A stretch of 64,000 bases of DNA from assembly GCA_964016885.1 (NCBI GenBank), contig OZ024742.1:18910001-18974000 (forward strand), read 5' to 3'. The stretch comes from Eledone cirrhosa (Eukaryota). Below the pieces are notes generated by a model. That model did no database searches. It worked only from the letters and a program-made list of their open reading frames with translations, and had not been told where the DNA came from. A program made the translations under genes and the position numbers. Below, one piece after another: positions 1 to 59,937 of this stretch (its first letter is position 1; the number at the start of each line of letters is the position of its first letter).

Positions 1-447
1 ATGTTGTTACATCTCATCAGCAATATTTACCTATCTTCCGGCTTCTCTAGAGAATCGTGAAAGCACATATCGTTATATGCTTTTTCTATGAAAATTAGTA
101 GTGGGCAGACCAATTTGCATAGAGCGTGAGTACGTACCGGTTCAACGGAGACGATAAAAACAAATAACGAAACGAAATTAAATTTTGTTTCGTTTGTAAC
201 TCACTTTTGTATGACTGACGCTTAAACAATTAAGTTAAAAATGTACATCCACATATGTATACTGAAATAATAGTATGCATATGAATACACACACGTGTAC
301 ATATGTAGATGTACCGAGTTTTCACTGGTCACTTTACTGTGAGTGTCCAGCTATTCTGTATGTAAACACACAGACAAACCGGTTCTTAGAGTCATACTGG
401 TTTTTGAGGAAACACCTTTCCTCTATTCTCCAGAAAGCCAGACAAGG

Positions 448-1885
448 AATATTGGACTAGTTTCGATGTTGTTACATCTCATCAGCAATATTTACCTATC
501 TTCCGGCTTCTCTAGAGAATCGTGAAAGCACATATCGTTATATGCTTTTTCTATGAAAATTAGTAGTGGGCAGACCAATTTGCATAGAGCGTGAGTACGT
601 ACCGGTTCAACGGAGACGATAAAAACAAATAACGAAACGAAATTAAATTTTGTTTCGTTTGTAACTCACTTGTATGACTGACGCTTAAACAATTAAGTTA
701 AAAATGTACATCCACATATGTATACTGAAATAATAGTATGCATATGAATACACACACGTGTACATATGTAGATGTACCGAGTTTTCACTGGTCACTTTAC
801 TGTGAGTGTCCAGCTATTCTGTATGTAAACACACAGACAAACCGGTTCTTAGAGTCATACTGGTTTTTGAGGAAACACCTTTCCTCTATTCTCCAGAAAG
901 CCAGACAAGGAATATTGGACTAGTTTCGATGTTGTTACATCTCATCAGCAATATTTACCTATCTTCCGGCTTCTCTAGAGAATCGTGAAAGCACATATCG
1001 TTATATGCTTTTTCTATGAAAATTAGTAGTGGGCAGACCAATTTGCATAGAGCGTGAGTACGTACCGGTTCAACGGAGACGATAAAAACAAATAACGAAA
1101 CGAAATTAAATTTTGTTTCGTTTGTAACTCACTTTTGTATGACTGACGCTTAAACAATTAAGTTAAAAATGTACATCCACATATGTATACTGAAATAATA
1201 GTATGCATATGAATACACACACGTGTACATATGTAGATGTACCGAGTTTTCACTGGTCACTTTACTGTGAGTGTCCAGCTATTCTGTATGTAAACACACA
1301 GACAAACCGGTTCTTAGAGTCATACTGGTTTTTGAGGAAACACCTTTCCTCTATTCTCCAGAAAGCCAGACAAGGAATATTGGACTAGTTTCGATGTTGT
1401 TACATCTCATCAGCAATATTTACCTATCTTCCGGCTTCTCTAGAGAATCGTGAAAGCACATATCGTTATATGCTTTTTCTATGAAAATTAGTAGTGGGCA
1501 GACCAATTTGCATAGAGCGTGAGTACGTACCGGTTCAACGGAGACGATAAAAACAAATAACGAAACGAAATTAAATTTTGTTTCGTTTGTAACTCACTTT
1601 TGTATGACTGACGCTTAAACAATTAAGTTAAAAATGTACATCCACATATGTATACTGAAATAATAGTATGCATATGAATACACACACGTGTACATATGTA
1701 GATGTACCGAGTTTTCACTGGTCACTTTACTGTGAGTGTCCAGCTATTCTGTATGTAAACACACAGACAAACCGGTTCTTAGAGTCATACTGGTTTTTGA
1801 GGAAACACCTTTCCTCTATTCTCCAGAAAGCCAGACAAGGAATATTGGACTAGTTTCGATGTTGTTACATCTCATCAGCAATATT
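448..1885 (-). ncRNA. Four minimal type I hammerhead ribozymes (448-492, 911-955, 1376-1420, 1841-1885; partial copy at 1-27)
   Basis: Minus strand reads AATATTG-CTGATGA-GATGT(AACA)ACATC-GAAA-CTAG-TC-CAATATT: 7-bp stem I, canonical core, 5-bp stem II, palindromic CTAG stem III, GUC site. Confidence 0.92.
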
Positions 1886-2340
1886 TACCTATCTTCCGGC
1901 TTCTCTAGAGAATCGTGAAAGCACATATCGTTATATGCTTTTTCTATGAAAATTAGTAGTGGGCAGACCAATTTGCATAGAGCGTGAGTACGTACCGGTT
2001 CAACGGAGACGATAAAAACAAATAACGAAACGAAATTAAATTTTGTTTCGTTTGTAACTCACTTGTATGACTGACGCTTAAACAATTAAGTTAAAAATGT
2101 ACATCCACATATGTATACTGAAATAATAGTATGCATATGAATACACACACGTGTACATATGTAGATGTACCGAGTTTTCACTGGTCACTTTACTGTGAGT
2201 GTCCAGCTATTCTGTATGTTCAACGAACCGGTACGTACTCACGCTCTATGCAAATTGGTCTGCCCACTACTAATTTTCATAGAAAAAGCATATAACGATA
2301 TGTGCTTTCACGATTCTCTAGAGAAGCCGGAAGATAGGTA

Positions 2341-4245
2341 AATATTGCTGATGAGATGTAACAACATCGAAACTAGTCCAATATTCCTTGTCTGGCTTTC
2401 TGGAGAATAGAGGAAAGGTGTTTCCTCAAAAACCAGTATGACTCTAAGAACCGGTTTGTCTGTGTGTTTACATACAGAATAGCTGGACACTCACAGTAAA
2501 GTGACCAGTGAAAACTCGGTACATCTACATATGTACACGTGTGTGTATTCATATGCATACTATTATTTCAGTATACATATGTGGATGTACATTTTTAACT
2601 TAATTGTTTAAGCGTCAGTCATACAAAAGTGAGTTACAAACGAAACAAAATTTAATTTCGTTTCGTTATTTGTTTTTATCGTCTCCGTTGAACCGGTACG
2701 TACTCACGCTCTATGCAAATTGGTCTGCCCACTACTAATTTTCATAGAAAAAGCATATAACGATATGTGCTTTCACGATTCTCTAGAGAAGCCGGAAGAT
2801 AGGTAAATATTGCTGATGAGATGTAACAACATCGAAACTAGTCCAATATTCCTTGTCTGGCTTTCTGGAGAATAGAGGAAAGGTGTTTCCTCAAAAACCA
2901 GTATGACTCTAAGAACCGGTTTGCCTGTGTGTTTACATACAGAATAGCTGGACACTCACAGTAAAGTGACCAGTGAAAACTCGGTACATCTACATATGTA
3001 CACGTGTGTGTATTCATATGCATACTATTATTTCAGTATACATATGTGGATGTACATTTTTAACTTAATTGTTTAAGCGTCAGTCATACAAAAGTGAGTT
3101 ACAAACGAAACAAAATTTAATTTCGTTTCGTTATTTGTTTTTATCGTCTCCGTTGAACCGGTACGTACTCACGCTCTATGCAAATTGGTCTGCCCACTAC
3201 TAATTTTCATAGAAAAAGCATATAACGATATGTGCTTTCACGATTCTCTAGAGAAGCCGGAAGATAGGTAAATATTGCTGATGAGATGTAACAACATCGA
3301 AACTAGTCCAATATTCCTTGTCTGGCTTTCTGGAGAATAGAGGAAAGGTGTTTCCTCAAAAACCAGTATGACTCTAAGAACCGGTTTGTCTGTGTGTTTA
3401 CATACAGAATAGCTGGACACTCACAGTAAAGTGACCAGTGAAAACTCGGTACATCTACATATGTACACGTGTGTGTATTCATATGCATACTATTATTTCA
3501 GTATACATATGTGGATGTACATTTTTAACTTAATTGTTTAAGCGTCAGTCATACAAAAGTGAGTTACAAACGAAACAAAATTTAATTTCGTTTCGTTATT
3601 TGTTTTTATCGTCTCCGTTGAACCGGTACGTACTCACGCTCTATGCAAATTGGTCTGCCCACTACTAATTTTCATAGAAAAAGCATATAACGATATGTGC
3701 TTTCACGATTCTCTAGAGAAGCCGGAAGATAGGTAAATATTGCTGATGAGATGTAACAACATCGAAACTAGTCCAATATTCCTTGTCGGGCTTTCTGGAG
3801 AATAGAGGAAAGGTGTTTCCTCAAAAACCAGTATGACTCTAAGAACCGGTTTGTCTGTGTGTTTACATACAGAATAGCTGGACACTCACAGTAAAGTGAC
3901 CAGTGAAAACTCGGTACATCTACATATGTACACGTGTGTGTATTCATATGCATACTATTATTTCAGTATACATATGTGGATGTACATTTTTAACTTAATT
4001 GTTTAAGCGTCAGTCATACAAAAGTGAGTTACAAACGAAACAAAATTTAATTTCGTTTCGTTATTTGTTTTTATCGTCTCCGTTGAACCGGTACGTACTC
4101 ACGCTCTATGCAAATTGGTCTGCCCACTACTAATTTTCATAGAAAAAGCATATAACGATATGTGCTTTCACGATTCTCTAGAGAAGCCGGAAGATAGGTA
4201 AATATTGCTGATGAGATGTAACAACATCGAAACTAGTCCAATATT
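2341..4245 (+). ncRNA. Five minimal type I hammerhead ribozymes (2341-2385, 2806-2850, 3271-3315, 3736-3780, 4201-4245)
   Basis: The same motif on the plus strand; predicted cleavage after GTC (after 2378 in the first copy). Confidence 0.92.
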
Positions 4246-4468
4246 CCTTGTCTGGCTTTCTGGAGAATAGAGGAAAGGTGTTTCCTCAAAAACCAGTATG
4301 ACTCTAAGAACCGGTTTGTCTGTGTGTTTACATACAGAATAGCTGGACACTCACAGTAAAGTGACCAGTGAAAACTCGGTACATCTACATATGTACACGT
4401 GTGTGTATTCATATGCATACTATTATTTCAGTATACATATGTGGATGTACATTTTTAACTTAATTGTT

Positions 4469-4570
<102 letters not shown>

Positions 4571-10164: not shown

Positions 10165-10409
10165 AAATAAAAATAAAATAAAGTATTACATCGGTAGTAG
10201 CATATAAATTATATGTTAACTAAATTAAAAATTATATATTTATTTCAATAGTATACGTTAATTAGTATATGTTAATTAGGTATACAATACATAAAGCAGA
10301 TATTGTATTTCATCAATAGCATAATATAATTATATGCAAATAGAAATCAAAATTAATACGCATACATATACATATACATACACATACACATATACATACA
10401 TATACACAC

Positions 10410-10442
<33 letters not shown>

Positions 10443-11223
10443 CATATATAGACATATATACATACATACAGATACACATACACAACACACACATATACAT
10501 ACACATATACATATACATATCTTTTTCAAAAAATTGCACAGAATATATTAACTAGGTATACATCCAAAACACATCCCATTCTATGATTACATGACATTCT
10601 GCAATTCGTCTGTATAAGGATACTAATTTTAAGCAAATTAAAATTAAAGTTTTAGGTTGAATAAAACTAAAACCAAATAATAAATATATTTCCAAAATGT
10701 ATATTAATTAGGTCTATAATACTAAAAATTATTTCTCCGTCATTGGATACATGATATTATTTTGTTATATTTTATCTGTAAAAGAATTATAATAAAAGGT
10801 TTAAATAAATTAAAATTAATCTATAAATTAAATTACTAAGTATATATTAGTAATATTTAAAGGTTTTTCACAATTTATGATTACATAATATTTTCTCATC
10901 TGTAATAAAATATTAATTAAATTAAATTTATAGGTTAACTAACATTTAAATTAAATTAATTTCTAGAATAATGTTATTAATTAGGTTTATAATATTTAAA
11001 TGTTTTTTTTAGTTTATGATTACACGATATAATTAATTCCTGTCGTTTATTTAATAAGATATCCTTAGACTTCATTATTTCAAATAGTTCTTGGGAACAT
11101 AATCTACATTCCTTTCTATTATTTTGATAAGGGGTGGCTCTTTTGAGCACACTCCAGGTCAAATCATATTTTATATTCTTATTTTTATAACTATTGATTT
11201 TTTCTGCTAGAGATGTTGTATTA
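10165..11223 (-). mobile_element. Inverted partial copy of the adjacent Penelope-like element
   Basis: Reverse complement of 11474-12532 (1059 bp); truncated by the gap. Confidence 0.9.
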
Positions 11224-11720
11224 TGTTGTACTATTTGAACCCAGTACATCAAATTAACAATAATATCTCCTCAAATACAGAATTAACGAAAGGATGTAAC
11301 TGTAGAAACAAAATAAACTGCCCATTAAAAGGGAATTGTCTTGTTAACAACATAGTCTATAAATGTAATGTTAAAACTAAAGATTCTATTTGCTCATATA
11401 TAGGAGCTACCTCTAACAATTTTAAGACAAGGTTTAATACCCACAAGCATAGTTTTAAAAATGCCGCACTGGCTAATACAACATCTCTAGCAGAAAAAAT
11501 CAATAGTTATAAAAATAAGAATATAAAATATGATTTGACCTGGAGTGTGCTCAAAAGAGCCACCCCTTATCAAAATAATAGAAAGGAATGTAGATTATGT
11601 TCCCAAGAACTATTTGAAATAATGAAGTCTAAGGATATCTTATTAAATAAACGACAGGAATTAATTATATCGTGTAATCATAAACTAAAAAAAACATTTA
11701 AATATTATAAACCTAATTAA
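11223..11720 (+). pseudogene. C-terminal GIY-YIG endonuclease fragment of a Penelope-like element
   Basis: CNCRNKINCPLKGNC knuckle, NIVY...YIG motif, FKTRF..H, CRLCSQE and LLNKRQEL..C.H. Confidence 0.9.
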
Positions 11721-12254
11721 TAACATTATTCTAGAAATTAATTTAATTTAAATGTTAGTTAACCTATAAATTTAATTTAATTAATATTTTATTACAGATG
11801 AGAAAATATTATGTAATCATAAATTGTGAAAAACCTTTAAATATTACTAATATATACTTAGTAATTTAATTTATAGATTAATTTTAATTTATTTAAACCT
11901 TTTATTATAATTCTTTTACAGATAAAATATAACAAAATAATATCATGTATCCAATGACGGAGAAATAATTTTTAGTATTATAGACCTAATTAATATACAT
12001 TTTGGAAATATATTTATTATTTGGTTTTAGTTTTATTCAACCTAAAACTTTAATTTTAATTTGCTTAAAATTAGTATCCTTATACAGACGAATTGCAGAA
12101 TGTCATGTAATCATAGAATGGGATGTGTTTTGGATGTATACCTAGTTAATATATTCTGTGCAATTTTTTGAAAAAGATATGTATATGTATATGTGTATGT
12201 ATATGTGTGTGTTGTGTATGTGTATCTGTATGTATGTATATATGTCTATATATG

Positions 12255-12287
<33 letters not shown>

Positions 12288-13441
12288 GTGTGTATATGTA
12301 TGTATATGTGTATGTGTATGTATATGTATATGTATGCGTATTAATTTTGATTTCTATTTGCATATAATTATATTATGCTATTGATGAAATACAATATCTG
12401 CTTTATGTATTGTATACCTAATTAACATATACTAATTAACGTATACTATTGAAATAAATATATAATTTTTAATTTAGTTAACATATAATTTATATGCTAC
12501 TACCGATGTAATACTTTATTTTATTTTTATTTGGGTTTCTTTTCCCTATTACTAAATTCATCTCCTAATATTGATACCATAACGTTATTAACTTTAATTT
12601 AGTTATAATGTAATTAATAATCTACTACTGTTTGACTTCAAAATTCTGCTTCAAATATTATAAACCTAACTAATTTACACCTTAGAAATCAATATGTTGA
12701 CTATCTTTGGTTTAGTTAACATATGATTAATGGTATACTTATTTATTTTGAGATGCATAGATTTCGTATTTCCTAGCACTGAAAATATGTAAGAACATAC
12801 ATTGAATTAAGATACGGAAAATATTATATGTTTCTTGAAACATATATTTACTTTGATCCCCTTCTCCAAACCCCCCCTTTCCCCCATACTATTATCATCT
12901 GTATTTGTAAGCGTCTATGTATGAATATATATGTAGGTAGGTGTCTATATAGGTTTGGGTATTTATATCTAAATATAAAAATACATATATGAGCATGCAA
13001 ATATGAATGTAAGATTGTGTGTGTATATATGATTGTACATACATATGTATGTATATATATGTATATATATGCATTATATATGTATGTGTATGTGAATGTG
13101 TTGTATGTATATGTGTATGTATGTGTATATATGTGTATGTATGTATATGCTTGTATATATAGGAATATATATATGTGTATATATGTATGTATATGTATAT
13201 GCGTGTATGTATGTATGTGTATGTGTGTTGTGTATATATATGTATGTCTCTCTATTTATATGTTTATCTTCGTATCTATGTGATATATGTGTGTGTGTGT
13301 GCACGTATGCATATGTATGTGTTTGTGTGTGTTTGTATGTGTGTGTGTATATATGTGTATGTGCGCACACACACATACACATATATATATATATATGTGA
13401 GTGTGTATGTGTGTCTGTGCGTGTGTGTGTGTGTGTATGTT

Positions 13442-15976: not shown

Positions 15977-16771
15977 TAAGTTTAATTTTACTACTAATTG
16001 TGTGTGGTTGATGGTATATTTGGTCTGATTCTGTATGCTGCCGAAATGTTGGTTAAATAATGGAACGGGGCTGCCGCGAAGAGGCTTTTACGCTTTAATT
16101 TATATTTTTCATTATCGTGTCTATAGTCTGCCTTTCATAGGTTATAGATTCCATACACTGGTGGTTTTTTTCCCTGTATTATTGATAACGCACTATATAT
16201 CTCTCTCTGGTGTGTTACCTTCTCAACATATTATATTTTAAAGGGCTCAGGATCTCTTCCCCTTTGAGCACATTATTTACAGGGAATAACGACGGCCTAT
16301 GCCTCCGTTAATTTATCGTGATATTTCGCTCCTAACAACATTCTTTCCCAGCTCTGTTTGGTTGAGCACACTTCTCTGAGTGGCTTTGGGCTGCCCTTTC
16401 TAGCAGTTCGTCTCTCAGAGGCCACTGGTTCACTGCCCTTAAACACGCTGTGACTTCTCTCTCCCACGTGTAGCTGGACAGTCAATTGTAAAATTCTCTT
16501 AGTGTTGTCTGAAATGTATGGCCTTACACACGCTGATGAACCGAGACTAGACCATTTCTTTCAACAATTTTTTGGTGAAACATATCTTTGGATTTGTACG
16601 TGTGTTATATAGTTATAGAGGTATTTATTTACGCTTTAATTTATATTTTTAATTATCGTGTCTATAGTCTGCCTTTCATAGGTTATAGATTCCATACACT
16701 GGTGGGTTTTTCCCTGTATTATTGATAACGCACTATATATCTCTCTCTGGTGTGTTACCTTCTCAACATAT

Positions 16772-25204: not shown

Positions 25205-26062
25205 ATGGAAAAGAATGAAACGAAATTTCATTTCTCACTCTTATTACGACTGATACCTAAATATAAGTATGTATACGTACATAGATATATGTGTACAGGC
25301 GTACAGTAGTATGTATACATATACATACATGCACACACATATACATGTACATATGGGTTTACCGAACATTTATTATAATGTTAGGTTTGTTTGTAAACAA
25401 ACAACCCGAATTACGCCGTACAGTGCTCGGCAACCTTCGTCGCCCTTTTGTTCAACACTGACGCAGGAAGGATGTACTAGCAATTTTGATGCTTGCCCTG
25501 GGCGCCGTTTACCCTAGCTACGCCACTGTCTATACTTACATACATATATGTGTACAGACGTACAGTAGTATGTATATATATACATACTACTGTAGTCTGT
25601 ACACATATATGTATGTACGTATACATACTTATATTTAGGTATCAGCCGTACCAAGAGTGAGAAATGAAATTTCGTTTCATTATTTTCTATCTATCGTTTT
25701 CAGTGAGCCCGGCCGACTAACTCACTCGATATCCAAATTAGGCTGCTCAGCCGTTAATATGCATAAAGAAAGTATATATTTTCAAACGTTCAATCATCTG
25801 ACAGAAAGGTATACGATGCTGACGATAGCTAATAAGCTTGAAACTAGTACAGCGTTCCTTTGTCAGGGTTGAACAAATGAGCAACGATGGTTGCTAGACA
25901 CTGTACGGCTTAATTGTTTGTTTACAAGCACATCGAGCATTATAATAAATGTTCGGTGAATCCATACGTACATATATATATGTGTGCATGTATGTATATA
26001 TATATATACATACTACTGTACGTCTGTATACATATATGTATGTACCTATACATACTTATATA
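25205..26062 (+). mobile_element. Retrozyme-like element of ~430-bp unit with terminal redundancy and an inverted partial copy at 25205-25405
   Basis: 25580-25635 is repeated at ~26007-26062; 25205-25405 is the reverse complement of unit sequence; contains a hammerhead; ends in (TA)n. Confidence 0.7.
25813..25855 (+). ncRNA. Minimal type I hammerhead ribozyme
   Basis: ACGATG-CTGACGA-tAGCT(AATA)AGCTt-GAAA-CTAG-TA-CAGCGT. Confidence 0.75.
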
Positions 26063-26140
26063 TATATACATATATTTTATATATACATATATATACATAT
26101 ATATATATATACATATATATATATACATATATATATATAC

Positions 26141-26195
<55 letters not shown>

Positions 26196-26198
26196 CAT

Positions 26199-28121
26199 AT
26201 AGAAAACATTAAAACAAACCCTAAGGCCTCAGTACACTGTAAGATTGGGCCACTCTTCCACACTGACGGTTCATTAACCGAAAACCCCCAAGAGATATGT
26301 GAAATACTGAACGAACAGTACAAAAGTGTGTTCACATGTCCACTGAGGCACATGCAAATAACGAAGCCAGAGGAGTTCTTTGATGCCACAACACTACATC
26401 AAGAAATGGCAACCATCAACCACATAGATATAACGGAGCAGAATGTGGTGTACGCCATTGATGAAATTAGAACAGACTCGGCTGCTGGACCTGATGGATT
26501 CCCAGCAGTTCTCTTAAAAATATGTAAGCGGGCCTTAGCAACTCCACTGAAGATGCTCTTCAGAAGCTCCTTGGCTAGCGGTGTACTACCCAGGGAGCTG
26601 AAAGAAGGCACAATATGCCCTATCCATAAAGGAGGTAGTAGAGCGGAGGCCAAGAACTATAGGCCAGTCTCCCTGACGTCGCATATCAGTAAGGTCATGG
26701 AGCGAGTCGTCAGAAAGAAACTAATCACTTTCCTCGAAGAAAATGACCGCCTGACTAGCACGCAACATGGCTTCCGCCCAGGAAGAAGCTGCCTTACACA
26801 GCTGCTACATCACTACGACTGGCTACTGAGACAACTACTAGACAGCTCACATGTAGATGTGATATATCTTGACTTCGCGAAGGCTTTTGACAAGGTCGAC
26901 CACGGAATGATATGTCACAAACTACACGGACTCGGCATAACTGGAAAAGTAGGTGAGTGGCTGCATGGCTTCCTAAGGGACAGAAGCCAGGCAGTCGCAG
27001 CAAATGGGGCCCTCTCGAGGGAAACACCGATAACAAGTGGGGTGCCCCAGGGGACAGTCCTGGGACCACTACTGTTTTTGGTGGCTCTCTCGGACATGCC
27101 CTCTGTGGTGGATGCAACAACATCCCTCACTAGCTATGCTGATGACACTAAGGTAGCACAGGCAATCAAAAACCCGGCTGACGCTGCCCTTTTACAGCAG
27201 GATCTGGATGCCATATACAGATGGGCGGAAGAAAACAACATGCAGTTTAATGCTGGCAAATTCCAAGCCCTACAATACAAACCTGCAAACACAAATATAG
27301 TGGAACACAGCTACAAAGGACCAGGAGGGACCGATATCCCCGTGTCAAAATCGATACGAGACCTGGGCATAGACATGAGCGATGATGCATCTTTTTCTTC
27401 ACACATCATGAAAGTGGCGACAATGTGCAGACGACTCGCTGGCTGGATCTTGAGGACCTTCCGGACAAGAGATCGAGACACCATGTTGACACTGTGGAGG
27501 ACTTTTGTCCTAAGCCGCCTGGACTACTGCTCCCAGTTGTGGTCACTCCATAGTGTCAAACTAACCACGGAGCTTGAGACAGTCCAGCGAAGCTACACCA
27601 AGAGGATTGCCAAGATGAGGGAGACAAGCTACTGGGAGAGGCTGAAGGAACTGAACCTCTACTCCTTGGAGCGAAGACGGGAGAGATACGCAGTGATCTA
27701 CATGTGGAAAATCCTGGAGGGAGTAGCACCAAACTTTGGCATTGGGAGCTGGACCAACCGTCGAACAGGACGTCACTGTGTGGTGCCAAAGGTCCCGTCT
27801 TCCACATCTAGAATAAGGAGCAGGTATTGCAATAGCCTGGGATTCAAGGGCCCTCAACTCTTCAACAGGCTGCCGAGGCATCTGAGAGACTTGCATGACG
27901 TGGAGGTGGATGTCTTTAAGAAACAACTCGACACCTTGTTATCCAGGATCCCGGATGAGCCCACAGCAAGACACGAGGGAAACCTAAGGGCAGCAGCAAC
28001 ACACTCCCTCTTACACCAGTCGCCAACCTATACAGGCTGGAGATAAAATGTGTAGCAACAAGGGCGGTGCCCCAGCATGGCCTCAGACGGATGGCTGAAA
28101 CAGGTAAAAGAGTAAAAGAGA
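26199..28121 (+). mobile_element. 5'-truncated CR1/L2-group LINE with open RT frame (to stop at 28046), inserted in (TA)n
   Basis: [48 protein letters not shown] and LYSLERRR motifs; 3' tail GTAAAAGAGTAAAAGAG. The ORF N-terminus before ~26199 is microsatellite read-through. Confidence 0.93.
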
Positions 28122-33073: not shown

Positions 33074-35993
33074 AAATATATATTATGGAAATACAATAGA
33101 GAAAGAAAAGAGAAAATTTAGATTGAAAAGAAAGGTTGGAATGTAAAATACGAAAATATAAAGGGAAGGGGGAGGGGGAGCGGAGGTTGATTGGGCTTTG
33201 GGCCTAGGGCGCAGCGGTAATGGAGATACGCCTCACTGACTGTCCGGCACTCTACCGATTTTGCCAATTCACCACCCTTATTTGTTACAAATGTTGACAC
33301 TATTCTGACAATCTGGTGGAAGAGGACAACACATCCACCCCAGTACGTGACTAGTATGTTATTTTGTCGACCTCGAAAGTATGAGAGACAAAGTTGACCG
33401 AGGATTTATATTCAGAATACAAAAAGCCGTAAGTGCTGAAATAAGTATTTTCCTACGCTTTAACGATTCAGCCAATCTACTTAGTAAATAATACCAACAA
33501 CATCAACAATAAATACATAAATACATGCATCCGGATACACTAATAAGCTCACCACCTTAATGTGTGTGTGCCAGAGAGAGAGAGAATGTGTGTGTATATA
33601 TATGTGTGTGTATGTGTGTGTGTCTGTGTCTGTGTGTGTATACACACATGTACGTATAGCTTTACATTCATAAATCCCTCCTTGTTTATTTATTAAGCCT
33701 ATCTCCGTTTTCTTTGGAAGCAACCAATCTTATAAGATCTGACACTGTTTTCTAAAGAAAGATAAGCTAACCACGAACGTGAAAGCTTTCTTTTCGCCGT
33801 TTGAAACGTGACAGTGACAACTTGTAACCATCAATGTAACTGTTTTAGTATTACATATGTTAACAAATTCGTTTTGGGTCTGTCAAGCAACTTTCTTCTC
33901 ATTTGGCTCTCACAAATTTATAAAACAAATTTTCCCGTGTGGAAGGTGTTCTTTGTTTTTTTCTTTCGTTAAATGTATTTTCGCTATCTCTGGAACTTAT
34001 ATTAAGAATTCCAGTTGCTACTACTGTTTGTCATGATACAAACATTTTGGCCAGAAACACTGAAAATTCTCTATATTTTATGACTAAAACCTTTTTATTC
34101 TTTTGAGACGTAGCTAAGGTAATTCAACATTTTTTTACGAGATATTTGTTCTTTTTATTTACATACTTCAGTATTTACCTTCCCCTCATCTTTCACTTCA
34201 AACATGCTAAACTTAGATTCTTTCTTTTCTTCCTTATTTTCATAACACAAAATCTTATCTTTGTTTCCATCATCTCGCATAAATATACTTATCTTAACAC
34301 TGAAGCAATAACAAGAGAAATCTATATATTTTTTTTAAATTGATTTAAAATAAGTGTCAGCTGTTCCCAGAGACAACAATACATCCTCAGAAATAACAAT
34401 AAATTTCTTCTTTTTTTTTTAAACACACAAAATATGGAATCTGAGCCAAAATTAATACATCGAATCATATCCACTGTGGAATGAGAGTTCAAGAATTTCT
34501 TCTATACATATGACTGCCTTCCATAAAAGAAAAATGATTGAAGTACTTTTTGAGATATTTCTGCATATTATTTTTTTATTTTTTTTATAATAAATATATT
34601 TATCAGTATGTTTCTTGCGGGAGATACGAAATTCTTCCATTTAATTCAACAAAATCAATCGGATCTTTCACGTGTTAAAGAATAAGAAAAAAAAAAAGAT
34701 AATTATTTCTGTTGTATTTAACGAACATAAAAAAATCTCACGGGAACTGGCCTGAAATACAGAAAAATCTATTTTAACGTGATGCGATATATATGTACAT
34801 GTATATATATGTATGTGTATGTGTGTCTATGTGTGTGTATGTGAGGAGAGGTAGATCAGCAGAATTGTCGAGCGTCGGATAATATGAATTTGCAGTATTT
34901 GTTGTCTCTTTACCTTTCATCTTCCCGGGGTTGGGAAAATAAAGTGTCATTCAAGAACTGGCGTTGGTTTAATCAACTTTGCTCTTTGTCAATTTTACTG
35001 GCCTTGTGCCCAAATTTGAAATCAATATGATGCGATACACACACATATATATCCATATAGTGATAATAACTTGGTAGAAATATCCAAGGTATAGAGCAAC
35101 TCATGTCCAATAGGGTGAGTTTTAATATATGGGCGGATCAACTTTACTACCTGTCCCAGAACAGGTTGTAAAGTTGGTTCTCCAAACTAACGATACGTTA
35201 CTGGACACAGAGACAGGCGTAAACATAGTCACATACACACTACATACTTCAGTGGAGTCTGTCTACTAAACTTGTCCATAGGTCCACGCAGTAAGATTGG
35301 ATCCTCAACCACGTGTTTGCGAAGCGAATTCAATAACCACACACACACACACACACGCACGCACGCACGCACGCTCGCTCGCTCGCTCGCTCACTCACTC
35401 ACTCACTCACTCACTCTATATTGTGTGTGTAAATATAAATGAAATGCAACTTTTATCTTATATTTCATTTATATTTCGAAGTTAGATACCCTTTTTCAAA
35501 GGATTAGAAACTGAATGTAGTGTCTTGCTTATTAAAAGAACAAAAATAGCCAGTTATACGCTGACAAAACAGCTACGAATTTATAGCATACTTCAGCTAA
35601 CTTATTGACTGTTAAACAACCAATTTGTTGCCTATAGAAAATAGTTAACGAACATTTTATCCATATATAAAGTGTAACGTTACTATAGAGACACATTAAA
35701 AAAAAAACATTATAAACCTCTTTTCAACATTCCACGTTTCCAGTATAAGGCAAACGTTGTTAGAAGTGTGGATTCTTTAAATATTTATTTCAAATCTTTT
35801 TCCCATACTTAAAAATGAACAAAATGTATTTACAAGTCGTGTCTGATAAGAGTTAGGATCCATATTTGTTTCGTATATTATTTAGGTAAAAACAAATTTA
35901 GAGTAATATTGACAACTTGATAATCTTCATAAAAGTGTGATTTTGTCGAATGATTTCCAAATATATATACATACATACATATATATATACATA

Positions 35994-36075
<82 letters not shown>

Positions 36076-36081
36076 CATACT

Positions 36082-36118
<37 letters not shown>

Positions 36119-36121
36119 ATA

Positions 36122-36177
<56 letters not shown>

Positions 36178-36183
36178 CATACT

Positions 36184-36317
<134 letters not shown>

Positions 36318-36355
36318 CATATATAAGATCAAAAGATGGTTAAAGGAGTTCCATA

Positions 36356-36426
36356 TATTTTATTATGCGCATTTCAAAAACAAACATCATCAAGCAATAA
36401 TATTTGTGTTTTCATCAGATAAAACA
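36356..36426 (-). ncRNA. Type I hammerhead ribozyme of the Naiad-type element
   Basis: TGTTTTAT-CTGATGA-AAACACAAATATTAT(TGCTTG)ATGATGTTTGTTTTT-GAAA-TGCGCA-TA-ATAAAATA; predicted cleavage between 36364 and 36363. Confidence 0.85.
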
Positions 36427-37407
36427 GGAGAACATGATATGAAGGCTAAAAAACACTTGTTGATAGTGCAGTTTTAAATCAACATATGAAAAGTGGTTTT
36501 AGATTGATGTGTGATATTGGGAAAAATATTTTATTTAGAGAGGGGGGGGAAAGGATGAAAAGGGAAGGAGATGAGAGGGAGAGATGGGTGATAGAGAGAA
36601 AGAGATAGTTTTTATAACTGAGAGGAGATATATTTTTTACATAGAGGGGTTGAAAACCGTTGGAAGATACTGTATAAATTAAAAATTTTGAAAATTAACG
36701 AAGGGAGGATATGTGCGAGGAAAAAATATTTTATTTAGGGAGGGGGGGGGGAGGATGAAAAAAAGGGGGGAGGAGATGAGAGTGAAGGTGGAGAGGGAGA
36801 GATGGGTGATAGAGAGAAAGAGATAGTTTTTATAACTGAGAAAAAGATATATTGTTTTAATATAGAGAGGTTGGGAACCGTTGGAAGATAATGTATAAAT
36901 TAAAGGAATTTGAAAATTAACGAAGGGAAATTATGTATGAAGATAGAGAGAAAAAAATAATAATTGTGGGTGAATATTCTAACGTCAAAAGAAGAAATGT
37001 ATGTATTGTGGCAATTTCAAAATTAGCGAAGAGAAAAATTGTTATGGTTTGTGTGTAGAAGGATTTGAGAAAAATAATGTGAAGTTAAAGTTTGTATATT
37101 GAATTGATATGTATTAATAATGAGTTCGTTGATGGGGAGAAAAAAATAATAATAAATTAAGGATGAAATTGATATTAAAAAGATTTATGATAGAGAGAAA
37201 AAATAATAATGATTGCAGATGAATATTCAAAATGTCAAAAACAAATGTTATTATTTTACGAGAAGATAGAATGAGGGTAATGAGTAAACGAGTATTATAG
37301 AGTGTATAATGCCCTTTAAAGTAAGGTAAGGTAGATGGGTATATTTTAAAGAGGTGTATGTATATGTGCCTTTGAGAAAAGATTCTAAATTGATAAAGAA
37401 TTGAATA

Positions 37408-39805
37408 TTAACTGTATACTTTGTGAAAAGTTCTATGGAATTTATGCAGGCAGATAGAAAACAAATCTGAGCGTCTGTTTATTATAGAATCTAGGTTAGA
37501 GATAATGGTAAATTTTTCATTTAGGCAGAGATTACAGATTTTAGATAGAGAGCTGTTCAAGTATGAGGATGCAGAAGAAATCTTTTTCCAAAAGATGTTA
37601 TATTTAATGTTTTTGTCTTTTAAGGACCATATGAGTTCTGAGAGAGCAGTGTTAGTTCTTTTAAGTTTGTATTTGAAAGATGAATGATGATTATAGAGAC
37701 GAGCTTTAAAAGAGGTGGAAGTGGAGCCAAAATAGGTGAAGGAATTGGTGCTAGTTATAATTTTACATTCATAAATTAAGTTTTTATCGAGGCAATGGTT
37801 GTTGAGAGGACATTTATTTTTGATGCGGCAGTTGCAATTAGAGAGATTATTAATGAGTGATCTAGTGTTATCTATAGAGGGAATTGGATTGGAGAAGTTG
37901 TTTGCGATAGGAATAATAGGAATAATAGTTTCTTGATTTAGAGTTGGATTATGAACATTTAGCGAAGTTGTGTTTGACGTTGTATTTGGGTTTACAGAAG
38001 TTAGCCTAGGGTTTACAATGACGTCGGGAGTACTATTACTGTTATTATGAAATTCGATATTGGAAGGAAGAGATTTAGTATTTAATATTTTGTTGTTGTG
38101 TTTAGAGATGATGTTGGAAATATTGGAGGATGTAGAATACGAAAATTTGATGGTGTGTTTGTTAAATATTTTACTATAGATATGTGAGGGAGGGAAGCAT
38201 TTATTTAAGGCACTAAAAAATAATTTAGGAATATTGTTATTAATAGAGATGGAGAAAGGAGCATTATACCAGATTATGTTTTTGTATCTAGGTCTTTTAT
38301 TAAAATTATTGGAATGGTCATGATTAATTATTCTACTGTAAGTTTTCCTAGAATTTGTTTCTTTATTATATTTGATTTTATCTGGATAGCCGGCTTTAGA
38401 AAGTGCGTTATTATAGTAATTGGCGTTAGCATCAAAGATGTTTTTATTAGAAGATATGTTAGATATTCTATTTCCAATATTATTAACTATAGCATTCTTG
38501 ATATTGGTAGGATGGTTAGATTTAAAGTTAACATAATTAAGATTCTCATTGTTTTTATGGTAAGGGTAATATAGGCCAGTGTCAAGATTAAGAGATACAT
38601 CCAAGAAATTAGCTAGTTTGATACTATTATCAAATTCAATTTTTAGGTTATGTTGGTTAAAGAAATTACGTATATTGTTCTTAATAATATTAAGTTTAAC
38701 TATATTGCAATTTAGGATAGTAAAGAGTCCATCGTCACGATAAATTCCACCGCGAAGTTGAGGAATTTTCCGACTCAAAGAGTTCAAAATGAAGATACCA
38801 ATTAAATCAGTCAATTGGGATGAATTGGATGCTCCCATTGTGATGTCGAAGTTGTTAGAGGTATCGGCTCTGGTCCAATATTCGTTGTTGAACTCTAGGA
38901 TGGTTTTACGTGCGGTGAGGATGATGTGAAGTTCATCTGTGGTGATGTCAGAATATTTAAGTGCGAAAGATAGAGCATTATTGAGAAGTGAAGGCGAAAT
39001 GGAGGAATAGTAGCTGGCAATATCGAATTGAATAAATTTTAGTTTGTTTTTATTATCCAATTTGTTGAACCAGCCAATCACTTCAGAAGTACCAAACCAT
39101 AAATTTAGGTTTAAAGAAGAGCAATTAGAACTAACCTGTGGGATAATCCTATCCAAGATGGCTTTACTAACAACCCCCAGATCAGATTTAGAGGGGGCGA
39201 TTAATCTAACAGGTAGTTCAGTGCGAAAATTGTTTTTGTGATCCTTGAGATTTATCCTCGGAGTTCTTGGTATCCTCGGTCTTTTTTTCAATGCCAAGTT
39301 TTGACATAATCTCATAGGCTTCAAGGTTTATGCATTCTAAATTTTCATGGTTGGTTTTACGATACTTTTTCCTAAGTTCCTTTAGGATAAGGTTGTTATA
39401 ATTATCCTTGGAAATACCATATAGGTTATTGGTTTTGTCAGAGTGGACTAAAACATTTTTTGAGGAATTTAGATTAGAGATTGTGTTCTTGAGATTTACA
39501 AGGTGCTCTTGTCCTTTGTAAGGGTATCTCTTGAATTTAAGATTTTTTATTATTTTAGTTAATTCTTCCTCGAATTGTGCTAGATTTTTGTTGGAAGGAG
39601 GATTTCGTCTAGAATTAAAAAGATGATCGAGGAAGTTGTGTTCTTTGGTATGAAAGTTCCCTTTTAGGCGCTGGTCATAGAAATAGGCTGTCCATCTAAG
39701 TCTTCTTACGAAGGAGTCAGTTTTTTCAATAAGAAGTTTGGTGAATTCAGATTTACCAGGTATAGGAATGTCTTTAGTTGAATTGGTTATGTTGTAATAA
39801 TCCAT
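37408..39805 (-). pseudogene. Penelope-like RT / GIY-YIG polyprotein with one frameshift near 39250-39290
   Basis: MDYYN..STKDIPIP..LIEKT..RRLRWTAYF, then LKDHK.NF..RLIAPSKSDLG, QFDIASYYSSI, DITMGA, YRDDG, NFLDV, SNHP, CNCRIKNKCPLNNHC, NLIY..YFG and CNLCLNEK. Confidence 0.92.
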
Positions 39806-39876
39806 GTTGTAGAAGAAGAGGTGAAGGACCATCAAAAGGTATCCAATATGAGAGTAAGCGCTCAACCGTTAAGGAG

Positions 39877-39975
39877 CAAGTTAATGTAAGATCAAGTTAA
39901 TATAAGATCAAGTTAATATAAGATCAAGTTAATATAAGATCAAGTTAATATAAGATCAAGTTAATATAAGATCAA
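39877..39975. repeat. 16-bp tandem repeat (~6 copies) in the element 5' UTR
   Basis: Unit CAAGTTAATATAAGAT. Confidence 0.9.
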
Positions 39976-39993
39976 AAGATGGTTAAAGGAGTT

Positions 39994-40075
<82 letters not shown>

Positions 40076-40084
40076 CATATATAC

Positions 40085-47331
<7,247 letters not shown>

Positions 47332-48434: not shown

Positions 48435-49134
<700 letters not shown>

Positions 49135-50025: not shown

Positions 50026-50040
50026 TATATATATATATAT

Positions 50041-53917
<3,877 letters not shown>

Positions 53918-55509
53918 TAGCAACTCCACTGAAGATGCTCTTCAGAAGCTCCTTGGCTAGCGGTGTACTACCCAGGGAGCTGAAAGAAGGCACAATATGC
54001 CCTATCCATAAAGGAGGTAGTAGAGCGGAGGCCAAGAACTATAGGCCAGTCTCCCTGACGTCGCATATCAGTAAGGTCATGGAGCGAGTCGTCAGAAAGA
54101 AACTAATCACTTTCCTCGAAGAAAATGACCGCCTGACTAGCACGCAACATGGCTTCCGCCCAGGAAGAAGCTGCCTTACACAGCTGCTACATCACTACGA
54201 CTGGGTACTGAGACAGCTACTAGACAGCTCACATGTAGACGTGATATATCTTGACTTTGCGAAGGCCTTTGACAAGGTCGACCACGGAATGATATGTCAC
54301 AAACTACACGGACTCGGCATAACTGGAAAAGTAGGTGAGTGGCTGCATGGCTTCCTGAGGGACAGAAGCCAGGCAGTCGCAGCAAATGGGGCCCTCTCGA
54401 GGGAAACGCCGATAACAAGTGGGGTGCCTCAGGGGACAGTCCTGGGACCACTACTGTTTTTGGTGGCTCTCTCGGACATGCCCTCTGTGGTGCATGCAAC
54501 AACATCCCTCACTAGCTATGCTGATGACACTAAGGTAGCACAGGCAATCAAAAACCCGGCTGACGCTGCCCTCTTACAGCAGGATCTGGATGCCATATAC
54601 AGATGGGCGGAAGAAAACAACATGCAGTTTAATGCTGGCAAATTCCAAGCCCTACAATACAAACCTGCAAACACAAACACAAATATAGCGGAACACAGCT
54701 ACACAGGACCAGGAGGGACCGATATCCCCGTGTCAAAATCGATACGAGACCTGGGCATAGACATGAGCGATGATGCATCTTTTTCTTCACACATCATGAA
54801 GGTGGCGACAGCATGTAGACGATTCGCTGGCTGGATCTTGAGGACTTTCCTTACAAGAGATCGAGACACCATGTTGACACTGTGGAGGACTTTTGTCCTA
54901 AGCCGCCTGGACTACTGCTCCCAGCTGTGGTCACCCCATAGTGTCAAACTATCCACAGAGCTTGAGGCAATCCAGCGAAGCTACACCAAGAGGATTGCCA
55001 AGATGAGGGAGACAAGCTACTGGGAGAGGCTGAAGGAACTGAACCTCTACTCCTTGGAGCGAAGACGGGAGAGATACGCAGTGATCTACATGTGGAAAAT
55101 CCTGGAGGGACTAGCACCAAACTTTGGCATTGGGAGCTGGACCAACCGTCGAACAGGACGTCACTGTGTGGTGCCAAAGGTCCCGTCTTCCACATCTAGA
55201 ATAAGGAGCAGGTATTGCAATAGCCTGGGATTCAAGGGCCCTCAACTCTTCAACAGGCTGCCGAGGCATCTGCGAGACTTGCATGACGTGGAGGTGGATG
55301 TCTTTAAGAAACATCTCGACACCTTGTTATCCAGGATCCCGGATGAGCCCACAGCAAGACACGAGGGAAACCTAAGGGCAGCAGCAACAAACTCCCTCCT
55401 ATACCAGTGGCCAACCTATACAGGCTGGAGATAAAATGTGTAGCAACAAGGGCGGTGCCCCAGCATGGCCTCAGCCGGATGGCTGAAACAGGTAAAAGAG
55501 TAAAAGAGT
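53918..55509 (+). mobile_element. Second, more truncated copy of the CR1/L2-group LINE (open RT frame to stop at 55434)
   Basis: Highly similar to 26537-28121; 6-nt duplication (NTNTNI); flanked by (TA)n. Confidence 0.93.
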
Positions 55510-56899: not shown

Positions 56900-58566
56900 T
56901 TCATTTATTAGCCACAAGGGCTGACATGTAGGGGACAATACAAAGACAGGGACAGTGGGGATTTACAATAAGGTCGAGTAAAAGTGCGCAATGGCAAGAC
57001 TAATTTAACAATGAAAATATAAAATAAACTATGCAAAATATAACAAAATAAATTCCCCGATAGGGGGTGGACGACCCTGGGGTGATTCGGGTACCCCACC
57101 AATCCTGAACCACCCTGCGCTTCTAGGGCACCCAGGAGAGCACCCCTCTCCTCAAGTTAGCTAGCCTATAGGCGCATGGTCAGAGTAGGCCCATTCACAC
57201 GAGCCATTCTTGCCACATTCACCCACCTTTTAGCAAATGTACTGGGGGGCAGCACTTCTCTCTCCACCCTCACCCTCCTTTCCAGGTGAAACTTGAAGAA
57301 GTTGATGAGGGATTGACCGAAGAGAAAAGTGTCTGTCTTTAGTCCTTTCAACCTGGTCCACCATATAGTCTCTTTCGCAACTGCCACCAGACAGAGGAAA
57401 ATGTCCTGCTCTTCCTGACCTAAGGAAGGTGGCGGCTCGATCTTCACTATGGACTCGGCCGATAACTGGATTCGTTCCACACGCGACAGTAGCTGTTCGA
57501 CATAACTCCACAAGTCAGTAATGCACGGACATTGGACAAGTGCGTGCAGAACGGTTTCGTCGTTCTGTGCGCATCTTGGGCAGGTCCGTCTGACAGCACT
57601 TCCGTGCCTGTAGAGTTTATCCCGAACCGGCAGTGCCCCCCGGTAGCACTGCCAAGCGAGGGATTTCTGGAAATTGTCCATCGTCCCCGGCTCAAAAGTC
57701 CTCCGGTACAGACTGGTCAGTTCGACTTCGTCGAGGCCCAAAGCTTCTCCGAGTGCGTCATCGCACTTGCTCTGCAATAATCCTCTATAAAACTCGAGAG
57801 TGGAAGTTCCACTGATCGCATTGCCCGCTTGGTAGAGGGCAGTGAGTGCCTGGAAACATCCCAGGTGCCAGTCACCCAGTCTCGGTCTCTTCTTGACCCA
57901 GGACTGCAGCTCAGTCAAAGAAATGAGCTGCGGAAAGGCCCGTCTGATAAACGGCGACCACACCTGTTCACCATTGAGGCAGAATATCTGGAGATGTCGC
58001 AGCCTCAACGCATGTCTGCGCATCATTAGCCACGGCATGCCCAGCCCTCCGTGTAGAGGGTGCTGGCAGCAGATGGACCGCCTCACCAACGGAACTTGTC
58101 CCCTCCACAAGAATTTGAAGAGGAGCCGTTCCAACTTGACGAGGCGCGGACGGGGGCAATGCACGACGGTTAGGCGGTAATAGATGACGGACGCGATGTA
58201 CGCATTCGCCACCTCCGCGCGACTTTTCAGTGATAGCTTCCTCCCAGCCCATTTTTGGGTGAGACTGGCTACTCTGCTCGTTACCTCGTCCCAATTCTTT
58301 TCCACCTGGAGGTCTGGTCCGAACCAAACCCCGAGCAACTTTACTGGTCTGTCCGTCCAGCGCCCCACGATGCTGTTGGACGGCATGGGCTTGCCTCTCC
58401 AGGTTCCGAGCTGCAAGCCCACCGACTTTTCCGGGTTAAGTTTGGCTCCTGTCAACCTTTCATATTCTTTCAATAAGGTGCCGACCACCTCGATTTCTGA
58501 GGTGTTCGACACCATCACGGTGATGTCGTCCGCATAAGCCGACACCGCCTTTCCACGTCCCGGTTC
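56900..58566 (-). mobile_element. 5'-truncated L1/Tx1-group non-LTR retrotransposon (ORF2 C-terminus 58566-57166 plus 3' UTR)
   Basis: AYADDITV, GAKLNPEKS, LLGVWF, HGGLGMP and zinc knuckle CPRC...ETVLHALVQC; 3' UTR ends in AATAAA. Confidence 0.88.
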
Positions 58567-59282
58567 AAAAATAATGAAAGGTAAAATTGTAAGGTTCAAC
58601 AAATAATAACATAGATTTGGTTGCGATAATGGAAAACTTCCTATAGTAGTGAGAATATTGCCTGGTGGTAGATAATGACACGGGAAATCCAATATAGATT
58701 TCGCTATAGAAAATAAATACAATTTCGACTATATTTTATATTATAAGAATTAAATAACCCGAGAAAAACATTCTAGTTGTAAATTACTCGAACTTTACTT
58801 CAATTTATCTATGTCTCTATCATAACTGCTTTTTAGTTGTATTTCATGCGTTGTTTTATTATTTATATTAATGCATAAAAAGAGGATTGAATAGACACGC
58901 ACGCCAAAATATGGCCATATGTATCAAGGGAATCATTTCTCTTCAAATAACATATTTTATAACATTGAATTCGTTCTAAAATTGGTAATGTTGTTTAAAA
59001 TCTAATTCTTTCTGAATTAGGGAGTGCGTTTGATATATGTGGTGGTTGAGGTTAGTCTCCTACTTGTTTGTATTTATCGTTGTTCTGTTTATAAACTATG
59101 GTCACATACAGTTGGTCGTTTTATTCACGATATCACACTTTCTTAACTTTGTGTTTACTCTAGATGAAAATGTATTAACTTTTCGCACCATTGAGTGCTC
59201 TGTCACCTCAAACAATTCGATTGTTATCTGCTCTTCTGCGGCTACAACTTCGATTTATACCTATTATTATTGTTGTTATTAT

Positions 59283-59937
59283 TTGAACTCAGAACCTAAT
59301 GGGCCTTAGCCCTATGCTGCAAAGCAGGGTGTCAGGTGCTCTATCGATACTGCCAATCCACCGCTCTAATAATAATAACTGTTTCTACTTTTGGCACAAG
59401 GCCAGCAATTATCCCAGTAAAGTACCAGTAATGCACTGAGATAATTGCTGGCCTTGTGCCAAAAGTAGAAACAGTTATTATTATTAGGGCGGTGGATTGG
59501 CAGTATCGATAGAGCACCTGACACCCTGCTTTGCAGCATAGGGCTAAGGCCCATTAGGTTCTGAGTTCAAATCCCGCCGAGGCTAGCTTTGCCTTTCATC
59601 CTTATGGGGTCGATAAGCAAAGTACCAGTAATGCACTGGGGTCGATTTAATCGACTTTCCCTTCTCCCAAAATTGTTAGCCTTGTGCTTAAATCAGAAAC
59701 CATTGTTATTATTAGGACGGTGGATTGGCAGAATCGGTAGAGCGTCGGACAAAATTATTTGCAGTATCTTGTTATGGCCCTTTACGTTCTGAGTTCAAAT
59801 CCCTCCGAGGTTAGCTTTGCCATTCATCCTTACGGGGTCGTTGAAATAAAGTATCAGCCACGCCCTGGGTTCGATTTAATTGACTTTCCGATTACTCCCC
59901 AAATTGCTGGCCTTTTGCCTAAATCAGAAACCATTAT
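59283..59937. mobile_element. SINE cluster including an inverted duplication (59283-59415 vs 59437-59570); further copies at 62143-62215 and 63895-64000
   Basis: GGCGGTGGATTGGCAG...GTTCTGAGTTCAAATCCC head and GGCCTTGTGCC...AGAAAC(ATT)n tail. Confidence 0.8.

Follow-up and report, generated by a model that had tools for sequence, protein, structure and literature searches.

Our analysis slightly favors reading the element at 36321-40000 (minus strand) of the window, a 64,000-nt stretch of the Eledone cirrhosa genome (contig OZ024742.1), as a frameshifted, (TA)n-targeting Penelope-like element (PLE) of the Hydra clade, with a 5' end formed by joining of TATAT to the target and a family that would copy two kinds of RNA. 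The family is almost certainly a new member of the Hydra clade, and the 5' end of this particular copy is probably incidental. The family-wide pattern of junctions bears on how PLEs build partial tandems, on the role of their hammerhead ribozymes and on the copying of sense versus antisense RNA, and it makes both the hypothesis of a circular template and the sense-template question directly testable.

The family encodes its reverse transcriptase (RT), followed by a C-terminal GIY-YIG endonuclease, in a single ORF, which is present as an unbroken 821-aa frame in 13 of the 28 loci examined. In the window copy this ORF (37408-39832, minus strand) is split by a frameshift near 39270; its parts are RWT, DKT, RT, an N-rich spacer, CxCx5C, GIY-YIG, CxxC and CxH. 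The YRDD of the RT (at 38742, residue 196 of reading frame P0002) precedes the GIY-YIG (37779-37734, residues 517-536), i.e., the endonuclease lies at the C terminus, and the CxCx5C, CxxC and CxH motifs are found at 37836, 37536 and 37452, respectively. An LRWT motif, with T for the K of RWK, and SDKT are also present (DKT in reading frame P0001), and the GIY-YIG carries no CCHH between GIY and YIG. A Pfam scan of the protein matched no RT or GIY-YIG family. The Hydra clade is defined by a single ORF with a C-terminal GIY-YIG, RWK, DKT, CxCx5C, no CCHH, CxxC and CxH, and its members carry a hammerhead at the 3' end, insert into (TA)n and are generally shorter than 3 kb (Craig et al., 2021, PMC8557442). 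Because the motif set of the element matches this definition, and because its protein lines up by eye with Hydra-1_Obim and Hydra-1_Ajap from the supplement of the same study, its sequence places it almost certainly in the Hydra clade.

The likeness to the clade described in the accessible parts of that study (PMC8557442) extends over the order of RT and GIY-YIG, the RWx and DKT motifs, the CxCx5C linker, the lack of CCHH, CxxC and CxH, as well as the 3' hammerhead and the (TA)n target. The element differs from it in a unit of 3.68 kb (3,683 nt from cut to cut in locus L004) against generally less than 3 kb, which is a tendency and not a strict criterion, in the N-rich spacer before the linker, in a hammerhead with a long stem II and a minimal stem III, in an optional tail of 91 nt instead of 30-40, and in its thousands of short inverted copies. 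The initial annotation had called the element Naiad-type. Naiads are described in the same text (PMC8557442) as having an N-terminal GIY-YIG, CxC, IFD, DKA in place of DKG and no canonical hammerhead. The element resembles them in its (TA)n target, partial tandems, inverted arms and similar length, but its RT lies before a C-terminal GIY-YIG, it has DKT instead of DKA, and it carries a hammerhead next to the Hydra-clade motifs, so that the Naiad label does not apply. The structure of EN+ PLEs is also found in the family, with a partial tandem, an inverted 5' arm and a tail at one end only.

The window copy belongs to a young, high-copy family, with copies 95-99% identical to it on many contigs. 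It is inserted in (TA)n, which covers 40001-40540 (~540 nt) on its 5' side, where the junction is ambiguous by TATAT identity, and 35960-36320 on its 3' side. It is single-armed, both the upstream pseudo-LTR and the inverted arm being absent. Its 3' untranslated region (36488-37407, minus strand) contains internal repeats, and the end of this region forms the variable pseudo-LTR of other copies. Its 3' end lies at start site 1 (36318-36325, minus strand; motif CTTATATTA), at about +46, where it merges into (TA)n; here and below, plus and minus positions are counted from the predicted hammerhead cut.

In other copies +46 is followed by a 91-nt segment. This segment is missing from the window copy, where six 16-nt units (39880-39975, minus strand) take its place and link start site 1 (+46) to start site 2 (+137). 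The units are private to this copy and occur nowhere else in the genome. Since the start sites CTTATATTA (+46) and CCTACATTA (+137) are similar and are joined by the units, the repeat likely arose when the template slipped from one site to the other and the units then expanded. An assembly error was considered and rejected: contigs of runs X1 and X2 also cover the units at low depth; these runs are not independent and possibly stem from the assembly's own sample. Runs X1-X4 consist of contigs with (TA)n flanks and are uninformative on expression or ends. With its ORF frameshifted and its 91-nt segment replaced by private units, the copy is not near-intact as had been proposed; it is an ordinary damaged member of its family and not itself evidence for ribozyme processing.

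The minus strand does encode a type I hammerhead (36348-36433), with the core, stems I and II and an NUH triplet all in place: CTGATGA at 36418, a long stem II, GAAA, a stem III that is minimal and palindromic (TGCGCA), and an AUA triplet. Its predicted cut falls at 36364/36363, the position given in the initial annotation, and the product would start with AUAAAAUAUAUGG, which pairs as stem I. The minimal stem III suggests that the predicted cleavage requires a dimer or a protein. The fold is kept across subfamilies. Where changes recur in stem II or inner stem I among 106 arms, they preserve pairing, and the sole recurring change in the core affects the free position 7, a pattern that suggests selection acting on the ribozyme. 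In the outer extension of stem I, pairs are broken by two recurring changes. The hammerhead of the element was not among the 150 of 345 Rfam matches listed, which were microsatellite noise and HH9 matches solely on the 465-nt repeats described below.

The ends of the window copy had been taken as the mark of this cut, and the description itself holds. The 5' end starts at +6/+7 of the predicted cut product, within a few nucleotides of the cleavage point and adjoining the (TA)n tract, and the 3' end runs past the cut and duplicates the 5' start: the first 37 nt (39964-40000, minus strand; second-pass +7 to +43 of the ribozyme product) equal the last 37 nt (36321-36357) exactly. The end also sits on TATAT, identical to the (TA)n target. 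Genome-wide, read-through of the cut has 2,421 exact matches, against 8 in which (TA)n directly precedes TATGGAAC; these are the window copy and 7 matches at six loci, which are solo inserts of +6 to +46. At a TA-like control site near +46, which has no ribozyme but is not neutral, being also a priming site, 65 matches adjoin (TA)n, 15 of them in the variant of the window copy (hand count); among 12 that were fetched, 11 were true breaks and one was an internal expansion. These counts do not support a reading of the end at the cut as more than chance.

A looser pattern gave 51 matches near the cut without the ribozyme's last stem in register, at least 7 of which are small internal changes. Counted by hand, about 11 start at +1 and 11 at +6, and about 8 start at -3, a position that belongs to the uncut side; the sequence opens with ATA at each of the three. 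The comparison of 5' ends across copies was made by local alignment on 96 of the first 100 listed, out of 182 copies with an exact body junction. Breaks fall at +12 to +137 in 24 of these, at the cut (-4 to +11) in 3, between the cut and -124 in 13 and at -124 in 2, one of them doubtful, while 54 go beyond; 69 of the 96 continue through the cut into a second pass. The 3 breaks at the cut compare with 5 at +39 to +42. Other copies have 5' ends that bear no relation to the cut, which speaks against the reading in the initial annotation. The 5' end of the window copy is likely a microhomology break, with TATAT joined to the (TA)n target.

A run-off would be the other way to obtain this end: the template would have been a linear RNA of unit length, cut by the hammerhead, and the RT, after one jump from the 5' to the 3' end of this RNA, would have run off the cut 5' end on second arrival. 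The distance of 5-6 nt between end and cut, the seven other matches at six loci that are solo +6 to +46 inserts in (TA)n, the roughly 11 of 51 near-cut matches that begin at +1 (hand count) and the conservation of the ribozyme would all suit such a run-off. We nevertheless consider it improbable for this copy, since the uncut side has about 8 matches that start at -3 and another 11 start at +6, with ATA opening the sequence at these positions as at +1, since the control site has 65 comparable ends, and since 69 of the 72 second-pass arms that reach the cut pass through it. Because the breaks at +1 and the solo +6 to +46 inserts exist, some cut linear RNA may be copied, as a minor use.

Family-wide, the 3' ends fall into two classes. 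They were sampled at 40 loci, taken in genome order from the list of read-through matches with an intact cut on one arm, a requirement by which this sample cannot measure breaks at the cut. Copies at these loci end at +46 or +137, 91 nt apart, two sites with the common motif C(C/T)TA(T/C)ATTA. In 26 of 28 two-armed, head-to-head insertions, one arm ends at +46 and the other at +137 (p 1.5e-6). The arms of one insertion diverge by 0.61%, against 1.36% between insertions, and therefore share a source. Amplification of a single MITE was considered for the short inverted pairs and rejected, since their junctions differ. The PAc element of Anolis, a Poseidon, also has two RT start sites and an optional tail (Frangieh et al., 2024, PMC11167929). 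As in PAc, the hammerhead cut is followed downstream by two internal RT start sites that delimit an optional tail here, a dimer is predicted, and both strands would be nicked and extended; unlike those described in the accessible text on PAc (PMC11167929), the start sites of the element resemble the target (TA-like) and lie 91 nt apart, and its family has a probable cap-stop class and two probable template classes. Solo (TA)n inserts at L255-L266 and L031-L038 consist of the 91-nt inter-start-site segment alone or of +6 to +46, and one locus of this set carries two +6 to +46 pieces in tandem.

At the other end of the arms, the main 5' stop of short copies is a single position, ATATGTTG (36487, minus strand), 124 nt upstream of the cut. 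Among the 70 terminal arms of the 40 loci, 25 stop there, 10 stop earlier and 35 pass, so that 25 of the 60 arms reaching -124 on the first pass stop. The base preceding ATATG at the stop is G in 2,077 matches genome-wide and A or T in 2,111 (A in about 19 of the first 100 listed), the templated base being C; the partner arm does not account for the G in 19 of the first 30 such junctions with G. In LINE-1 and SVA, an untemplated extra G at the 5' end marks a copied cap (PMC4859970). From the likeness of the extra G to this mark, transcription of a capped sense RNA, with its ribozyme still uncut, likely starts at -124, and the stop probably reflects the RNA cap. The family shares with LINE-1 and SVA insertions the extra G at a sharp 5' end; unlike the LINE-1 and SVA products described in that source (PMC4859970), its putative capped products are short copies, not full-length ones, and integrate as inverted pairs. 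A point against the cap reading is that the stop lies in a palindromic word, CATATG, and that this alone could favor the joining of arms. The ratio across the stop, 11,976 to 2,512, was set aside because subfamilies differ upstream.

Retroviral strong-stop DNA is a short cDNA that ends at the RNA start, and the short cDNA of the family would likewise end at the start of its RNA. A literature search, largely without subscription journals, found no cap or strong-stop class and no demonstrated circle in PLEs. At L106 (1146-3199), a piece from inside the ORF continues, without a change of orientation, an arm that stops at the likely cap with the extra G; this locus shows a template jump. Head-to-head palindromes have also been proposed to form by self-priming on an antisense template (Arkhipova, 2013, PMC3846280). 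Perfect fold-backs centered on CATATG at L077, L088, L095 and L113 have the shape that such self-priming would give, but the extra G stands on the sense strand at the stop, and arms stop at -124 even when the partner arm ends elsewhere, which makes this origin very improbable.

The arms of an insertion agree in their relation to the stop: in 27 of 28 two-armed insertions, both arms lie within -124 or both extend beyond it. On the second pass, 2 of 56 arms stop at -124, whereas 25 of 60 do so on the first (Fisher p 5e-7); the first-pass sample was chosen on the young-subfamily pattern, and the second-pass sample mixes subfamilies. Since second-pass arms rarely stop there, the stop is not a property of the sequence, and the difference between passes indicates that full-length copies are not made by end-to-end copying of the capped linear RNA. 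Short copies would likely come from capped, uncut RNA and long copies from an RNA without an end at this position. Second-pass lengths beyond -339, where mapping is unreliable for older subfamilies, were discarded, since the accumulations at -339 and -737 reflect differences between subfamilies rather than breaks.

For the template of the long copies, we give a circle made by the hammerhead about an even chance. Hammerhead cutting, ligation and reverse transcription of the circle for more than one unit have been put forward as a hypothesis for PLEs (Cervera and de la Peña, 2014, PMC4209133), so that the more-than-unit circular-template model is itself already published. The long copies resemble what that model and animal non-LTR retrozymes envisage, i.e., cutting, ligation and more-than-unit copying, and opposite-strand hammerhead pairs 100-700 bp apart have been noted for these systems; in the accessible text of both sources, in contrast to our analysis, the model is a hypothesis without junction statistics and short inverted pairs are not tied to a cap (PMC4209133; bioRxiv 10.64898/2026.07.22.740005). 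In PAc, hammerhead cutting was dispensable in vitro, and none of the RNA reads started or stopped at the cut (PMC11167929). The earlier proposal that a ribozyme-processed, unit-length RNA was copied more than once survives in part: more-than-unit copying of a circular or tandem template fits the family (69 of 96 copies pass the cut; the fold is conserved), but the 5' end of the window copy as a run-off at the cut does not (3 of 96).

Linear transcripts could take the place of the circle. In the model of Frangieh et al. (2024, PMC11167929), with a multi-copy mRNA and uncut RNA as the main in vitro substrate, long copies would come from read-through or tandem transcripts starting upstream of the pseudo-LTR of the source element. 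Such transcripts account for the missing cap stop and for the absence, by eye, of same-strand pairs one unit apart, i.e., of two-full-unit tandems, among the first 100 listed body junctions, where an unlimited circle would give about 3 on a rough estimate. They also predict that a small number of sources would limit the length of pseudo-LTRs and pass on their junctions, whereas by eye the breaks listed within 318 nt of the cut seem to be all distinct, and they leave a conserved ribozyme without a reason; we regard them as rather unlikely. Less likely still is a retrovirus-like scheme, in which one capped linear RNA with terminal redundancy is copied, the strong-stop cDNA jumps from the cap to the 3' repeat and failed jumps remain as short copies. 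The strong-stop class exists, the jump from a capped end to an internal site at L106 is of this kind, and coupled arms could explain the concordance of arms; a second arrival at the cap should, however, stop equally often (2 of 56 against 25 of 60), and the long junctions bear no G scar.

Returning to the hammerhead-made circle, we tentatively propose the following mechanism as the most likely; its strict form, with short pairs as the sole yield of the precursor and the circle as the sole source of full-length copies, has in our view somewhat less than an even chance. A protein dimer would nick (TA)n and, using a single sense RNA, prime two cDNAs at +46 and +137. If this RNA is the capped precursor, still uncut, synthesis of both cDNAs would end at the cap after 170-260 nt, and the products would integrate as short inverted pairs; these "strong-stop" by-products number in the thousands and in the strict form would be all that this precursor yields. 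On an RNA without an end at -124, most simply a unit-length circle cut at both hammerheads and ligated, the cDNAs would run on, and the few that pass one round would give the body with a pseudo-LTR of random length, and in the strict form only the hammerhead-made circle of 3.7 kb would produce full-length copies with pseudo-LTRs. The window copy would have completed one round, slipped between the start sites, giving the 16-nt repeat, and ended at +6/+7. If this strict form is true, the PLE hammerhead gains a required role, the choice between a sense and an antisense template is settled, and a class of short inverted repeats is defined as dead-end cap products. A young family with many unbroken ORFs and thousands of junctions allows exact predictions of the one base that would carry the cap, of the two sites of priming, and of the size and junction that the circle would have.

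The window also contains two families of short hammerhead repeats, retrozymes with units of 465 and 310 nt, for which the element had been put forward as the best candidate helper. We do not find grounds for this: the element and the 465- and 310-nt units have no significant sequence in common (best E 0.04 over 19 nt), the motifs at the 3' ends of the units are unlike those of its family, with no common pseudo-LTR or start-site sequence, and the window copy cannot encode a whole protein. As the end motifs differ and the copy is broken, nothing singles out this family as the helper. The 465-nt family forms long arrays, often head-to-head, with many similar arrays elsewhere in the genome, and in the window's array it ends at +230 and +298 from its own cut, one end per arm. 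This layout and the (TA)n target suggest that the helper is some (TA)n-targeting element of PLE type and that a small template was copied over multiple rounds. The array occupies positions 1-4470 and continues upstream (L225), head-to-head in (TA)n; its minus arm has about 11 units, its plus arm about 5, and the two arms end at different sites (+298 / +230). A diverged, nearly monomeric relative of the 465-nt unit lies in (TA)n at 48497-48940 and has the same short 3' end site. The 310-nt repeat is present as about 1.8 units in (TA)n at 50040-50610 (minus strand), with its 3' end at +163 from its own cut, and a piece of it flanks L017.

Further hammerhead-like CTGANGA...GAAA cores, mutually different, occur on the plus strand at 16533, 21185, 25819, 29211 and 31660; they are possibly ends of other PLE families or chance occurrences. 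A perfect 1,059-nt inverted repeat with a 250-nt spacer (10165-12532) could be a two-armed insertion of another family. At 59316-59535, a long hairpin-forming inverted repeat gave weak Rfam miRNA matches, below gathering scores. An RT frame behind a microsatellite at 25914-28046 (plus strand), with the same sequence recurring near 53929 (plus strand), is one that we take from its motifs to be of LINE type, and a 520-aa frame at 57166-58728 (minus strand) presumably represents the C-terminal half of an L1/Tx1-type RT, which its motifs resemble.
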